Under the pieces are notes generated by a model. It searched no databases. It saw only the letters and a list, made by a program, of their open reading frames with translations, and was not told the origin of the DNA. Shown piece after piece: positions 25,932 to 51,520 of a DNA stretch of 64,000 bases. How positions within the stretch are numbered: position 1 is the first letter of the stretch; each line of letters begins with the position of its first letter. Origin of the DNA: Candidatus Oxydemutator sp. (lineage in GTDB: Bacteria > Pseudomonadota > Gammaproteobacteria > Poriferisulfidales > Oxydemutatoraceae); assembly GCA_965203445.1 (NCBI GenBank), contig OZ241883.1:1952001-2016000 (forward strand). The letters are read 5' to 3'. Both the position numbers and the translations under genes were made by a program.

Positions 25932-26349
25932 ATGCCAGAACATAAAACCACGAAAGTCCTATTCCTCTTTTTCATAATACTGTCCTTATCCGCCTGTAGC
26001 ATTGGCATTGGTAGCGGGCGGCTCTATACCTCACCAGGAGTATCTTTAGAAGGTGTTAAATCAATTTTTGGTAAACACTATGATGATATAGATGAGATGG
26101 CTGAGCAGGAGCAGATAGAAGATATTGATGCCCTTATCGCAGACATATTTGATGGAGACCCTAACTCTTTTCAAGAAGCGACAGCGGTTCGCTCTGTCTG
26201 TAAATCGGGAGATGCAAAGAAGCAGGCTTTGTCTCGGAGCTCAACAGACGATGAAGATGCAGAGAAGCAGGCTTTGTCTCGAAGCTCAACAGAGACGAGG
26301 ACATGCTATAGGAATGAATTGCAAAATCTTATCCTGGGTAGATCAGAAA
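25932..26349 (+). pseudogene. Lipoprotein of unknown function, 5' half (interrupted by the IS1595 element)
   Basis: Hydrophobic signal with LSAC lipobox; rejoins 28974-29494 in frame when the element and one TSD are removed. Confidence 0.85.
26210..26293 (+). repeat. Tandem duplication in the lipoprotein gene (45-nt period, 39 nt with 2 mismatches)
   Basis: Encodes DAKKQALSRSST / DAEKQALSRSST. Confidence 0.85.
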
Positions 26350-26376
26350 GGGAATTATATACTTAAATCTACAAAA

Positions 26377-26556
26377 TCAGCGTTTAACCAGTTTCCATTT
26401 CTGGTGTAATTCTTCTTCTGTAGGCTTCTTATTTTCGTATTTGGCACGCTTCTTTATCGGTTTGAGTAAAACCCCTTTTATCGCAGATTCAAACTCCTCC
26501 ATAGAGATGGGTTTATAATCATCCGGGTTAAGTCCTTTTGGTTTTTTGTCGGTCAT
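26377..26556 (-). CDS. 59-aa basic hypothetical protein inside the IS1595 element
   Basis: Not in the ORF track. AGGAG RBS; MTDKKPKGLNPDDYKPISMEEFESAIKGVLLKPIKKRAKYENKKPTEEELHQKWKLVKR; stop lies next to the TIR. Confidence 0.65.
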   Translation of the reverse strand: MTDKKPKGLNPDDYKPISMEEFESAIKGVLLKPIKKRAKYENKKPTEEELHQKWKLVKR

Positions 26557-26564
26557 ATGAACTC

Positions 26565-27875
26565 CTATGCCGTCTTTCTGCCAAAGGTTATCTTGCGTTT
26601 CAGCAATTTCTCGCGGGCGGCGATTTTGGCCATCAGGTAATCCATAGGCCTATCACCCTTTATACGATTGCAGTTGCCACATAGCAGTTGGTAATTGCCG
26701 TAGGTATCCTGCCCGCCCTTGTTCTTGGGCACTATATGGTCTATTTCCAGATTCTCGTAGTTGTCCATGCCACAGGCATTGCATATCTTGCCGTATTCCT
26801 TTCCCAATCTCTTCTTTACTTGCTTCTTGTTCTTGGCATCAACTATATCCGTTATCTCTATATCCGTTCTGATCGGCACATCGGTTCTATGGACAAAATC
26901 TTTGAACAATCCGGCTTCATCGGACAATCTATCCACTACCAACTCGGCAGACTTCTTTTCAATATCTATTCCTATCCATCTGCGTTGTAATTGTTGCGCC
27001 GCAACCATTGTTGTTGCACATCCACAAAAAGGGTCCAAAACCACATTGCCTTTGTTGCTGCTTGCCTTAATGATCCGTTCAAGCAGGGCCAACGGTTTCT
27101 GCGTGGGGTAACCCAAACGCTCTTTTGATGTCCTACCAACCGCGTCCATGTTCCAATAGTCCCTACAACCCGTCATTGTGTAATATCCCCGTTCGTCCTT
27201 ATACAATTTTATGTTGGTCTTTGAAAAAAGGATATTCTGATAGGTTCCATGCTCATCACTAAGCGTTTTGTTCTTCTTGGAATGTCTTAATTGCCCTGTC
27301 AGGTATGACCTATCTTGCGGTATGTTGAAATTGTATTTCTTGCTTTTGCTGTAAAACAAAATTACATCGTGCTTCCGGCCGAAGAATCTTTTACTTGCTC
27401 CACCAGTCCGATAACACCAAAGAATTTCATTCAGAAAATTATTCTTGCCGAATACTCTATCGCAGATAATTTTCAAGTAGTGACTTGCTGTTTGATCACA
27501 ATGTAAGTAAAGACTGCCTGTAGGTTTCAACACCCTATGCATCTCCAGTATTCTTTGGGTCATGTAAGTAAGATACGCCATCATCGCCTTGCTATGCAGT
27601 ATTTCTACTGCTTCTATATACTGAACAAGATACGGGTAGTCATTCACCATTCTTTCCAGGTACGCCTCGTCAACGTCCTTCCAACTCCACATGTCCTTGA
27701 AAGAAGCACCGGCCGCCTTGCTGCCTATCGGTGCCGAATAAAACCGCTTGCTATTGAACGGGGGGTCAAGGTAAATCAAATCAACCGATTCACTGTTCAT
27801 CCCGTTCAGCACGTACAGGCAATCCCCAGTGAACAAGATATTCCTTTGTAAATCAAGGGGTTGCCCCCCCCGCAC
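26565..27875 (-). CDS. Beta-class N6A/N4C DNA methyltransferase fused to a C-terminal HNH endonuclease
   Basis: DLIYLDPPF (motif IV) precedes YPTQKP..LL and VLDPFCGCATT (motif I). C-terminus CNACG...EIDHIVPKNKGG.D...N.QLLCGNCN..KG. Confidence 0.9.
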   Translation of the reverse strand: MRGGQPLDLQRNILFTGDCLYVLNGMNSESVDLIYLDPPFNSKRFYSAPIGSKAAGASFKDMWSWKDVDEAYLERMVNDYPYLVQYIEAVEILHSKAMMAYLTYMTQRILEMHRVLKPTGSLYLHCDQTASHYLKIICDRVFGKNNFLNEILWCYRTGGASKRFFGRKHDVILFYSKSKKYNFNIPQDRSYLTGQLRHSKKNKTLSDEHGTYQNILFSKTNIKLYKDERGYYTMTGCRDYWNMDAVGRTSKERLGYPTQKPLALLERIIKASSNKGNVVLDPFCGCATTMVAAQQLQRRWIGIDIEKKSAELVVDRLSDEAGLFKDFVHRTDVPIRTDIEITDIVDAKNKKQVKKRLGKEYGKICNACGMDNYENLEIDHIVPKNKGGQDTYGNYQLLCGNCNRIKGDRPMDYLMAKIAAREKLLKRKITFGRKTA

Positions 27876-27906
27876 TATATGTAGTAGGTGCCACGGGTCT
27901 GGCCGG

Positions 27907-28851
27907 TTATGTGGTTAGTTCTTTGTACGAGATGCGCTTGCCTCCCATGCCCTGCACAAGCGATTCCATCCGATCAATAGTATCCACTTCGCAGTTGCCC
28001 TCGTTCAGGCGGAACGAGAACTCATCCACATAGCGATGCAGATGTTTCTTGCTGACATGGTGGAAGGTGCCGTGCACGCCTCTTTTCAGCAACGCCCACA
28101 CCGACTCGATACTGTTCGTATGAACCATGCCATCTACATACCTATTAGCGGAATGGTTGATGGCTTCATGTGTGTATCCTTGTAGTCCCGTATAGGCGCC
28201 ATGCTCATCAGTGAACACTCTTGAACCTTTCTCAATATTATCGTAGATAACATTCTGTAAAGTATGTTTATCGGTGTTGCCCACCGGCATCGCCTTCACA
28301 CGGCCTTTGCGCTCACGCATACCAAGTACAGGTGTTTTGCCGATAGTTCCCCGTCCGGCCTTCAGTTTCTTGTTCTCATGCTTGTTCCGTTCCATGCCCC
28401 CTATGTAGGCCTCATCCACTTCCACAATATGCGACAACTTGAACTCCCCCTGCTTGCAGGCCTCGCGGATGCGCTGCAACATATACCATGAAGACTTTTG
28501 GGTGATACCCAACTCTTTTGACAACTGCAAAGATGATATGCCCTTGCGTGCCGTCAACACGGCATAGATGGCTATGGCCCATTTGCGAATCCCAATTTTG
28601 GATGCGTGCATAACGGAACCCGTCTTAACAGTGAATGCCTTGCGACAATCCTTATGCCAGTATGTGAACTTTTTGCCCTTGTACGGGTTGATATTATCCA
28701 TGCCCCCGCAATGCGGGCACACCGGCTTGCCCTCCCATCTTGAACGTTCAAGCCAGGCAACAGCCTTGCGCTCGGTGCCGAACATGGAAGACAACTCTAT
28801 TATGCTAATCGTATTTGCTATTCTTTTCATGGCTTTTCTCCTCTCAATCAA
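27907..28851 (-). CDS. IS1595-family DDE transposase (start may be 28830)
   Basis: N-terminal CPHCG zinc ribbon, HTH (ISSLQLSKELGITQKSSWYMLQRIR), VEVDEAYIGG, VFTDEH, HTNSIESVW, YVDEFSFRLN. Confidence 0.95.
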   Translation of the reverse strand: MIERRKAMKRIANTISIIELSSMFGTERKAVAWLERSRWEGKPVCPHCGGMDNINPYKGKKFTYWHKDCRKAFTVKTGSVMHASKIGIRKWAIAIYAVLTARKGISSLQLSKELGITQKSSWYMLQRIREACKQGEFKLSHIVEVDEAYIGGMERNKHENKKLKAGRGTIGKTPVLGMRERKGRVKAMPVGNTDKHTLQNVIYDNIEKGSRVFTDEHGAYTGLQGYTHEAINHSANRYVDGMVHTNSIESVWALLKRGVHGTFHHVSKKHLHRYVDEFSFRLNEGNCEVDTIDRMESLVQGMGGKRISYKELTT

Positions 28852-28973
28852 TCTCTGTTTGTAGATTATTATACTGATATTATAATGTGTGTGTCAACCC
28901 TGCCCCTTTCTTATTGATATACAAAGGAATTATGGAACCTTTGTAGATTTAAGTATATAATTCCCATCAGAAA

Positions 28974-29494
28974 CCCGGTGTGGCAGATTTTTGCAGCATC
29001 TTAGGGGACAAAGTTCAGATCTTCATTATACTTTGGGAATCGCGTCCGTCGTAGCAGGTGCGTTCGCGACAGTTATTGAGCATGCCAAAACCGCCCAGAA
29101 GTTTTCCGGAGTATCTGCTGCTGCAACTGGAATCAGGGCGGAATATGACCAGAGTTATTTCAACCAATTGCTGATAAATACGATCGAAGGAGGTATCAGT
29201 AAAAAACGCAGGGAAATCAGGGATGAAATTGAGAAGAAGGCAAAGGGAGATATTAATACGTATGGCGTTAATCAGGCAGTTAAAGACGCGAGGCGGTATC
29301 ATGCCAGTTGTAATATTATTGCTGGGTTGAAAAAGGCAAGTGCAATTGATCATTCTATTGGCCTGAAGAAGTTTCAGGAGACGACCGAGGAGCTTAGGAA
29401 AGAAAGATTACGTATGCTAAAGGATCTAGAAGACCAAGAAAAAAAACAAGAAGAAGAAATAGAGGAGATCAAAAAACAAATAAACGGAGGGTAA
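28974..29494 (+). pseudogene. Lipoprotein of unknown function, 3' half
   Basis: Continues the frame of the 25932 ORF (..GRSE|TRCGRFLQHL..); reconstructed ORF is 939 nt, 312 aa. Confidence 0.85.
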
Positions 29495-29577: not shown

Positions 29578-30720
29578 TGACCTACCTCCCCTCAAGGAAT
29601 ACGAGGCGGGCGCCCGCATGGCGGATTTGTCTCGCAAATAGGGGGTCAGCGAGCAGAGTTTCTACCGCTGGAAGTCGAAGTATGGGGGAATGGATGTAAG
29701 CGAAGCGAGGCGCTTGAAGCAGTTGGAGGTGGAGAACGCCAAGTGGAAGCACCTGCTGGCGGAGGCGATATTAGACAAGAAGGCGTTGCAGGAGTTGGTA
29801 TCAAAAAAGTGGTGACGCCTGGGGCGCGCCGCCAGAACGTGCGGCACTTGGTGCGCCGCGACGTGGCGAGCGTGCGTCGGGCAGCACGTCCCTTGATGGG
29901 TTTGGTGGGATTGAGTCGTTCGGTGGCGCAGTATCGGCGCCACCGGCGAGGTCACGAGGCATTGCGAAGGCGTCTTTATGGAGTTGGCGCGGAAGTATCC
30001 GCGCTACGGGTATCTGACGCTGCACGGGCTGCTGCGTGCCGAAGGGCTGGTGGTGAACCGCAAGCGCACCTATCGCCTGTATTGCGAGCTAGGCTTGCAG
30101 GTGCGCCGGCAGCGGCGCAAGAAGCTGTCGCGCCCGCGCGTGGCGATACCGGCGCCCGGCGCCGCGAACCAGCACTGGTCTATGGACTTCGTATCGGATC
30201 AGTTGGCCTGCGGGCGCCGCTTTCGCATTCGGGGCGTCATAGACGACTACTCGCGCGAGTGCGTCGGTCAGATAGTGGGCACTTCGATAGGTAGCGAGCG
30301 CGTGGTTCGTTTCCCGGATGCTCTTGGCCAAAAGCGCGCGCTGCCCAAGACGCTGGTATGCGACAACGGGAGCAAGTTCGCCAGCAAAGCAATGTGTCTA
30401 TGGTCGAGAAGCAGCGGTGTGGAGTTGCACTTCATCCAACCCGGCAAGCCGGTGCACAATGTCTATGTGGGGCCTATGTGGAGAGTTTCAACGGGTTTGT
30501 GCGACGCCTGCCTGAACCAGCCCTGGTTCGCGGATTTGGGGGACGCCAAGCAGCTCATTGCCGACTGGCGCCATCACTACAACCACGTCAGGCCGCATAG
30601 TTCCTTGGGCTATGTAGCGCCAGCGGCATTCCTGAAGAAGGCCGCAGCCTGATACAATGGAATTTCTTTCAATGACTGCGACCCTAATTTAGGGGGAAGG
30701 TCAATTTAGGGGGAAGGTCA
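29578..30720 (+). mobile_element. Degenerate IS3-family element (IS407-like ends)
   Basis: TGACCT.. left end and ..AGGTCA right end (duplicated). orfA is 5'-truncated with an in-frame TAG (29639) and an A6G slippery site (29803-29809). orfB has WSMDFVSD, CDNG and YNHVRPHSSLGY but is frameshifted. Confidence 0.88.
29591..30652 (+). pseudogene. IS3 transposase orfAB pseudogene
   Basis: Nonsense codon in orfA. In orfB the catalytic ESFNG segment is shifted out of frame near a CTATGTGG duplication (~30462-30481). Confidence 0.8.
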
Positions 30721-30761: not shown

Positions 30762-31595
30762 GAACCTATCTCAAAATCAAATATCTGCTGATTATCGTGT
30801 ATGATCTATTGCATGGTACGATTGAGCGACGAGCAATGGGAACGCATACACAAGCACTTCCCAGAAGAGAACATCCCACCGGGTCGGGCCGGTCGCAAAC
30901 CAGTGCCGACAAGGAAGGTTCTCGAAGGCGTCCTGTGGATCCTCAACACGGGTGCGCAATGGAAGATGCTGCCGCAATGTTATCCGAATTACAAAACAGT
31001 TCACCGTCGTTTTCAACGGTGGTGTATGGACAACACCTTGCGCGATCTGTTGGTGGACTTGGCTAACGATTTACGCAAGGAAGGGATCGTGGACGAGAGG
31101 GAGTGTTATATAGATGGGATGTTTGCCGCGGCCAAAGGGGGTGGCGCCGAGGTGGGTAGGACGAAGCGCGGAAAAGGCGTCAGAATCATGGCCATAGTGG
31201 ATAAGCATGGTCTGCCGTTGTCGGTCAGTACGCACGCGGCGAACCATCACGAAGTGACCTTGGTGCAGTTGAGTTTTGACTTTTACATGATAGAGGCGAA
31301 GCCGAAGAACCTGATAGGGGATCGCGCCTATGATAGCGATGGTTTGGATGAGGAATTGCGCGCTTCGGGGATAGAGATGATAGCCCCGCACAAACGCAAT
31401 CGTAAGAAACGCAAGACCCAGGATGGTCGCAGACTGCGCCGTTACGAAAGACGCTGGATAGTGGAGAGAACTTTTGCATGGCTACAGTGGCAACGACGAG
31501 TGTTAACACGGTGGGAGTATTACGCGCATAACTTTTTTGGTTTTGTGCAGCTGGCTGCCATGATGATATTGATTAGGCAATTTTGAGATAGGTTC
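30762..31595 (+). mobile_element. IS5-family insertion sequence (~834 bp)
   Basis: TIRs GAACCTATCTCAAAAT / ATTTTGAGATAGGTTC, each flanked by AT. Confidence 0.9.
30813..31586 (+). CDS. IS5-family transposase (single intact ORF)
   Basis: LSDEQW, GVLWILNTGAQW..LP..YP...TVHRRF, YIDG, IGDRAYDSD, RWIVERTFAWL. Confidence 0.93.
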   Translation: MVRLSDEQWERIHKHFPEENIPPGRAGRKPVPTRKVLEGVLWILNTGAQWKMLPQCYPNYKTVHRRFQRWCMDNTLRDLLVDLANDLRKEGIVDERECYIDGMFAAAKGGGAEVGRTKRGKGVRIMAIVDKHGLPLSVSTHAANHHEVTLVQLSFDFYMIEAKPKNLIGDRAYDSDGLDEELRASGIEMIAPHKRNRKKRKTQDGRRLRRYERRWIVERTFAWLQWQRRVLTRWEYYAHNFFGFVQLAAMMILIRQF

Positions 31596-51421: not shown

Positions 51422-51496
51422 CTTTTGTCCTATGAACTTTCATCACCAGACATCATATCATATTCCTATGCAAATTCAATTACTTCACAATCATTC

Positions 51497-51520
51497 TGTA
51501 GATTTTGATACATAATTCCC
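51497..51520. mobile_element. Solo IS1595-like terminal inverted repeat
   Basis: TGTAGATTTTGATACATAATTCCC matches 28942-28965 (TGTAGATTTAAGTATATAATTCCC) at 20/24 positions, at the edge of an AT-rich patch. Confidence 0.6.

Follow-up and report, generated by a model that had tools for sequence, protein, structure and literature searches.

Transporter insertion sequences (tIS), in which a passenger gene lies within the ends of an insertion sequence (IS), are restricted to the IS1595 and IS66 families in the TnCentral account (bioRxiv 10.1101/2021.05.26.445724). Single-chain restriction-modification (R-M) enzymes of Type IIC/IIG, in the reviewed and characterised forms, mostly join an N-terminal PD-D/EXK nuclease to a gamma-class methyltransferase (MTase), with BtgZI as the named exception (PMC4081073). 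Movement of the target-recognition region (TRD) reshapes methylomes in Type III mod genes (PMC3467074), and Cj0031 of Campylobacter jejuni is described as a phase-variable, single-gene Type IIG enzyme whose switching affects methylation and phage restriction (PMC4889913). Solo tnpB genes lying between the inverted ends of DDE elements are described as mobilised in trans (PMC10691335; PMC13565253). We analysed a stretch of 64,000 nucleotides of contig OZ241883.1 from Candidatus Oxydemutator sp. (positions 1,952,001 to 2,016,000, hereafter the window), in which an IS1595 element at 26350-28965 carries a gene that fuses a beta-class amino-MTase to a C-terminal HNH domain. The reading that we favour, and think reasonably probable from the evidence of homologues and sequence, is that of an intact IS1595 transporter IS whose cargo would act as a one-protein R-M enzyme with an exchangeable TRD and, possibly, a G-run switch.

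The IS1595 vehicle and its insertion site

The element spans 2616 bp, has 45% GC in a 64% GC genome, and contains three minus-strand open reading frames (ORFs) encoding a transposase of 307 aa, the cargo of 436 aa, and a small protein of 59 aa. It is bounded by terminal inverted repeats (TIRs) of 26 nt that are 100% complementary, no other of the 68 inverted pairs in the 4.3 kb examined being both long and perfect, and an identical 8-bp target-site duplication (TSD), ATCAGAAA, stands on both flanks. In-silico excision of the element together with one TSD restored a single host frame of 312 aa that includes the downstream ORF; the insertion thus split a host gene whose two halves are still undecayed. 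A public contig (run X1), which may be the source of this DNA, covers this stretch with 0 differences. The features are as follows.

25932..26349, plus strand: 5' half of the host ORF; N-terminus lipoprotein-like, judged by eye
26342..26349: TSD copy 1, ATCAGAAA, 8 bp
26350..26375: TIR at the gene-downstream end, 26 bp
26377..26556, minus strand: 59-aa ORF, part of the IS backbone; homologues in loci L052, L053, L138, L288, and L290
26565..27875, minus strand: beta-class amino-MTase with C-terminal Zn-binding HNH, 436 aa
26649..26783, minus strand: HNH domain, aa 365-409; His, Asn, Asn, and two CxxC pairs intact
27126..27413, minus strand: hypervariable TRD, aa 155-250; exchanged between backbones
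27864..27871, minus strand: G8 run, codons 2-4 of the MTase gene, in frame; candidate slippage switch
27907..28830, minus strand: IS1595 DDE transposase, 307 aa; Zn ribbon C38/C41/H59/C62; D139, D208, E242
28868..28897, minus strand: sigma-70-type promoter-like site, TTGACA-18-TATAAT; a 12/12 consensus match only
28940..28965: TIR upstream of the transposase, 26 bp
28966..28973: TSD copy 2, ATCAGAAA, 8 bp
28974..29494, plus strand: 3' half of the host ORF, hypothetical protein; no Pfam match

The transposase ORF is open over 27907-28851 on the minus strand, with ATG at 28830 as the likely start, and matches PF12762 at 149 bits (cut-off 27), PF12760 at 31.6 (25.4), and NF033547 at 206 (75). Its catalytic residues D139, D208, and E242 are invariant in 19/19 aligned transposases, and the N-terminal zinc ribbon covered by PF12760 is present with His59 as its third ligand. 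An 8-bp target duplication is typical of the IS1595 family. With the catalytic domain, triad, zinc ribbon, TIRs, and duplication all in place, the element belongs to this family, and with a passenger gene within its ends, it is a transporter IS. The promoter-like site, a consensus match only, reads into the transposase.

Relatives contain sister elements, each flanked by an 8-bp TSD of its own (L054, L040, L126, and L138). The small ORF, which has no Pfam or NCBIfam match, recurs just within the far TIR in relatives, cargo-free copies included; it is therefore part of the backbone, and the cargo slot lies between it and the transposase. This slot is variable. It is empty or nearly so in L052, L053, L055, and L056; holds MTase-HNH fusions in L054, L290, L301, and L001, an MTase-GIY-YIG fusion in L058, and MTases with an Mrr-like tail in L126/L311 and L040; and carries other MTases in L061, L066, L067, L068, L302, and L309. 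Exceptions were two loci with unrelated or unassigned ORFs and one glycosyltransferase, whose position within the ends is not established. One related genome (G004) has eight full-length transposase matches of equal score, and the one checked (L056) is cargo-free. The comparison of same-TIR elements proposed in the initial annotation thus found both the cargo and the TRD to vary among sisters.

A near-identical sister was found in run X3, from another study. Contigs of this run match both ends and the transposase with 15 differences in 1103 nt, and extend into different flanks, in which a single 8-bp TSD, AAAAGTAA, can be read. The MTase piece shows 22 differences in 510 nt before running into a different TRD, the end of which resembles, by eye, that of homologue P0003. 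Overall, the pieces are 96-99% identical to the window element, and their different TSD points, indirectly, to mobility; transposition is predicted. The initial annotation had described an element with perfect 26-bp TIRs and an 8-bp TSD, an intact transposase, and a 436-aa MTase-HNH passenger, and our alignments, open ORFs, profile scores above cut-off, and intact motifs agree with it throughout. Its view that the element is intact, recent, and mobile gains support from the TIRs, the TSD, the restored host frame, and the sister pieces, which have a different TSD. The 59-aa ORF, the G8 run, the interrupted host ORF of 312 aa, and the genome's 13 tnpB-only cassettes were absent from it.

The element occurs once in the 2.38-Mb, one-contig genome, and the idea of a multi-copy element in this genome was dropped on that count. 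The split host gene has no family match, its look-alikes being unnamed hypothetical clusters, and no uninterrupted allele was found with this query in the 40 relatives searched. Neither an empty site nor a circle joint was seen in contigs of four runs, although contigs drop rare variants. Within the split host ORF, a 39-nt direct repeat with 45-nt spacing (window 26210-26293) forms an in-frame duplication of 15 aa. Directly past the interrupted gene lie an IS3-type integrase-core ORF (window 29978-30652) and an IS5-type transposase (30801-31586); the region around the gene is a low-GC insertion hotspot. A 17-nt inverted repeat with 1 mismatch (27840-27856 / 28914-28930) links the MTase 5' region with the subterminal upstream end, a match near chance by rough estimate.

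A methyltransferase-nuclease fusion with an exchangeable TRD

The cargo, one ORF of 436 aa, matches PF01555 at 171 bits and PF01844 at 46 bits. Its DPPF motif at residue 37 precedes the TRD (residues 155-250) and motif I, DPFCG, at 281. A structure model (pLDDT 75, pTM 0.63) has M.BceJIV, M.RsrI, EcoP15I Mod, and M.MboIIA as its top structural matches; because of this motif order and these matches, we assign the enzyme to the beta-class amino-MTases. The family matches give no specificity. In the HNH part (C365xxC...DH380...N394...C399xxC-N403), all catalytic residues and zinc ligands are present. Among solved structures, none was found to span both the MTase and HNH domains. An RNA-guided, IscB-like role for the HNH was considered and rejected (the IscB model scored 41 vs 175 bits, over the HNH stretch only, and the window has no Rfam match), as was an NrdR-box-like motif before the MTase start, which recurs in 2/148 loci and is not conserved.

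The homologue search returned at least 7999 candidates, and our motif and TRD counts come from the best 120, of which 114 have the HNH motif whole. Homologues stem mainly from metagenome-assembled genomes of many phyla. A transposase stands beside the homologue in 9/30 loci of relatives, a count that includes the window itself and one duplicate, in 3/49 genome loci, and in 1/78 metagenome loci (47 of them with at least 1.2 kb upstream). Full-length fusions covering 80% of the query were absent from the 29 plasmid and 48 phage records that matched. The fusion is unusual among characterised enzymes and common in uncultured bacteria: the initial annotation's "atypical architecture" holds against characterised Type IIC/IIG enzymes and fails in metagenomes, where the fusion is abundant and mostly not beside a transposase. 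Full-text literature searches, with REBASE and subscription papers outside their scope, found no paper describing a beta-class MTase with a C-terminal HNH; the fusion is apparently abundant yet uncharacterised. Two genomes (G042 and G050, loci L227-L286) have 14 and 18 MTase-family matches, several of them HNH, GIY-YIG, and Mrr-like fusions, sets that may serve as a pool for TRD exchange. One homologue, P0067, is filed under a freshwater mussel name and is probably bacterial sequence in that assembly.

Pairwise identities, from which we judged incongruence, show that the TRD moves between backbones. It falls into 61 clusters at 60% identity among the 120 proteins. In 12 of 59 pairs with backbones at least 90% identical, the TRDs were less than 40% identical, and conversely, 53 of 1946 pairs with backbones 50-70% identical shared a TRD at 60% or more. 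The window cargo illustrates both directions: P0003 is 93-98% identical to it outside the TRD and 24% inside, and P0027 has a backbone identity of 68% and a TRD identity of 92%.

Several observations suggest that the HNH is kept by selection, and nuclease activity is predicted on that basis. Compared with the X3 sister, the HNH part has 9 synonymous changes and 1 replacement, and in 7/7 relatives compared, pN was 0.23-0.30 against a pS of at least 0.70 (we quote only pN and pS because synonymous sites are saturated against distant relatives). Tails behind the MTase core carry the HNH motif in 130/182 genes, the others being T5orf172, which we take to be GIY-YIG-like, or Mrr_cat-like, several of the latter scoring below the Pfam cut-off. 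Repeated recruitment of three unrelated nuclease folds points to a working nuclease position. We also modeled the cargo as a dimer. The model scored 0.71 vs 0.00 for the best of three controls, its runs agreed in at least 95% of contacts, and the partner pLDDT was 75-76; the mark applied was reached by 20/30 solved pairs and 1/23 solved single chains. The contacts predicted with confidence fall within the MTase core and outside the HNH, and the model probably passes by its likeness to solved beta-class MTase dimers. Such a dimer would bring together two HNH sites, in principle enough for a double-strand cut.

The G run and the tnpB cassettes

A G8 run (27864-27871) lies directly after the GTG start of the MTase gene, which is in frame here. 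G/C runs of at least 8 just past the start occur in 10 of 179 distinct homologous genes, 3 of the 10 in frame and 7 out of frame. When genes were grouped by a scheme of our own, start-proximal runs of this length were found in 6/12 IS-preceded genes and 4/44 other genes of relatives and similar genomes, and in 0/123 gut and other metagenome loci. The simple repeat thus sits inside the reading frame, as in phasevarions, and runs recur at the same position in relatives. A longer C run in X3, for which only contigs were available, sits at a contig end. The position of the G8 run is suggestive of an on/off switch, and phase variation at this gene is possible. A literature search on phase variation together with IS passengers returned nothing relevant by title or abstract start. 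At 31 sites of the genome contig (G000 C1), runs are 8 long in one repeat copy and 21-27 in another, through assembly error or real hypermutability.

The same genome contains 13 tnpB-only cassettes that have no transposase, 12 of them of about 1.25-1.4 kb and one of 786 bp (for example, in the series L070-L083 on G000 C1, 174463-175774, 975120-976431, and 2133905-2135281, with ten more). Their ends match 11-12 of the first 12 TIR bases, 8/13 have a perfect 8-bp TSD, and similar cassettes occur in relatives. The window element holds the genome's only IS1595 catalytic domain (one PF12762 match), and its transposase is the sole candidate helper that we found for them. Three cassettes, identical to the TIR in 23-24 of its 26 bases, would be the best candidates for mobilisation in trans. 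A second MTase-carrying element (L085, G000 C1:512963-514351) is dead: an N-terminal remnant of a truncated IS1595 transposase is followed by a 278-aa N6/N4 MTase and a TIR-like end.

Other structures share these ends. By eye, the tnpB cassettes have a hairpin that uses the inner TIR as its 3' arm and covaries between copies, a pattern that fits an omega-RNA running into the end. At window 51433-51520 (minus strand), a lone left cassette end contains the first tnpB codons only and then host sequence, with no partner end found. At G000 C1:113341-113503 (L086) lies a MITE-like unit of 163 bp that has this TIR type too. In the literature, we found no paper pairing TnpB with IS1595 ends; the texts on DDE-associated TnpB name IS630, ISL2, and IS1031, and IS1595 is absent from the main texts of PMC10691335 and PMC13565253 and has a single entry in a profile list of one supplement, although further supplementary lists of PMC10691335 may name it.

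Function of the cargo and comparison with known systems

In the mechanism that we propose, one promoter within the upstream end likely drives the transposase, cargo, and small ORF, and the transposase would move the unit into AT-rich 8-bp sites. The cargo is predicted to dimerise via its MTase core, with the TRD reading a short sequence, and to methylate adenine (cytosine N4 is not excluded) in host DNA, while the tethered HNH domains would introduce nicks or breaks into incoming DNA that lacks the methylation. The TRD would be exchanged through recombination between conserved motif blocks, shifting methylation and cutting specificity jointly, and slippage in the G8 run would silence both activities together. 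At least some of the tnpB-only cassettes probably also move in trans with the help of this transposase.

Several findings count against parts of this scheme. Among the nine proteins with the window's TRD type, five have no HNH, some perhaps through truncation, and the HNH diverges faster than the MTase core, with a pN about twofold higher. About a dozen of the 31 G/C runs in the assembly are 18-28 nt, so that run lengths are unreliable and the 7/10 out-of-frame cases may partly be sequencing error; the run-enrichment test counts related genomes as independent. MutS and MutL are both present, which led us to reject loss of mismatch repair as a cause of slippage and should make slippage at a run of 8 less frequent. 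The X3 pieces lie on separate contigs whose depth is about 2, and we infer that they form one element from their common TSD, AAAAGTAA. The other tnpB cassettes match the TIR at only 15-21 of 26 bases and may need other transposases.

The initial annotation had proposed an R-M, addiction, or epigenetic module. The strongest support is for R-M; the module may have an epigenetic role, and the case for addiction is weak. The five HNH-less homologues with the window's TRD type fit a cargo that is in effect an orphan, specificity-shuffling MTase with an epigenetic or anti-restriction role and an HNH that is weakly nicking, regulatory, or dispensable. HNH-less related MTases in phages and plasmids, where no record covers 80% of the query (0/48 and 0/29), point the same way, as does the methylome reshaping known for Type III mod genes (PMC3467074). 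We nevertheless regard this as rather unlikely: the HNH motif is intact in 114 of the best 120 homologues, synonymous changes outnumber replacements 9:1, and the nuclease has repeatedly been replaced by other nuclease folds. In a second alternative, the HNH serves the element or gene rather than the host, through nicks for TRD gene conversion, homing, or donor-site repair after transposition. TRD exchange is frequent, the domain resembles the generic HNH of IscB/Cas9 and group II intron proteins, and the same end type carries another nuclease, TnpB. Most homologues, however, are not beside a transposase (1/78 and 3/49), and cargo-free IS copies spread, as the eight equal-score matches in G004, including the checked L056, suggest; we consider this explanation improbable.

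Addiction, in which the cargo would kill cells that lose the element, has precedent in that R-M systems can be selfish addiction cassettes (PMC6471742), and a nuclease-MTase pair does lie inside a mobile element here. Both activities are on one chain, though, and would decay together, and out-of-frame, broken, and cargo-free relatives exist, which makes this account very improbable. We retain the one-protein R-M enzyme in a transporter IS as the preferred reading. If the HNH cuts, the 436-aa protein would be a very compact single-chain R-M enzyme whose architecture is not among the Type IIC/IIG forms reviewed, and the 61 TRD types among the best 120 homologues would amount to a natural specificity library. 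The window copy lends itself well to testing, being both intact and in frame, with a near-identical sister whose TRD differs.

A wider reading is more doubtful, and we put it forward tentatively. The beta-MTase-nuclease fusions may represent a class of one-gene R-M enzymes that is as yet uncharacterised, compact in size and reprogrammable, in which a dimeric core like that of Mod is joined to a cassette-like TRD and a nuclease socket for HNH, GIY-YIG, or Mrr-like domains. One IS1595 lineage would deliver them with a start-codon slippage switch, and its transposase would also spread tnpB-only cassettes encoding RNA-guided nucleases. On that reading, host-associated bacteria would receive two kinds of programmable nuclease from a single small transposon family.

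The vehicle belongs to a known type. The element shares with other tIS its IS-like size, TIRs, short TSD, DDE transposase, and passenger gene, and differs from those described in that the slot of this lineage mostly holds DNA MTases or MTase-nuclease fusions ahead of a conserved terminal ORF of about 55 aa (bioRxiv 10.1101/2021.05.26.445724). Transposon-like R-M units likewise have R-M genes between TIRs (26/26 in N. gonorrhoeae) and 8-bp duplications, whereas the present element holds a cognate intact transposase and its cargo is one fused gene (Furuta et al. 2010, PMC2853133). The tnpB-only cassettes resemble the described DDE-associated solo elements in having tnpB alone between DDE-type ends, unlike which their ends are of IS1595 type, a family unnamed in those main texts (PMC10691335; PMC13565253).

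The cargo fusion is the less familiar part and is apparently not among the characterised Type IIC/IIG forms. Nuclease and MTase domains are in one polypeptide, as in Type IIC; Type IIG enzymes have a gamma-class MTase with a cleavage domain and AdoMet stimulation, and here the MTase is beta-class and N-terminal. Like MmeI, Eco57I, and BpuSI as reviewed, the cargo has one chain, one shared specificity region, and one nuclease site per chain, so that a change of specificity would affect both activities; unlike them, it places a beta-class MTase first and a small HNH last within 436 aa, with an internal TRD and a predicted MTase-core dimer (PMC4081073). With Cj0031, it shares the single-gene R-M plan, while the on/off switching of Cj0031 is only suggested for the window gene, which has a different architecture and lies in a transposon (PMC4889913). 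The closest parallel to its core is Type III Mod: both are beta class, with a variable TRD between motif blocks IV-VIII and X-III and incongruent TRD and backbone similarities (PMC3467074). Type III systems have a separate Res helicase-nuclease gene beside mod; this element contains only the transposase, cargo, and 59-aa ORF, and its nuclease is the fused HNH.

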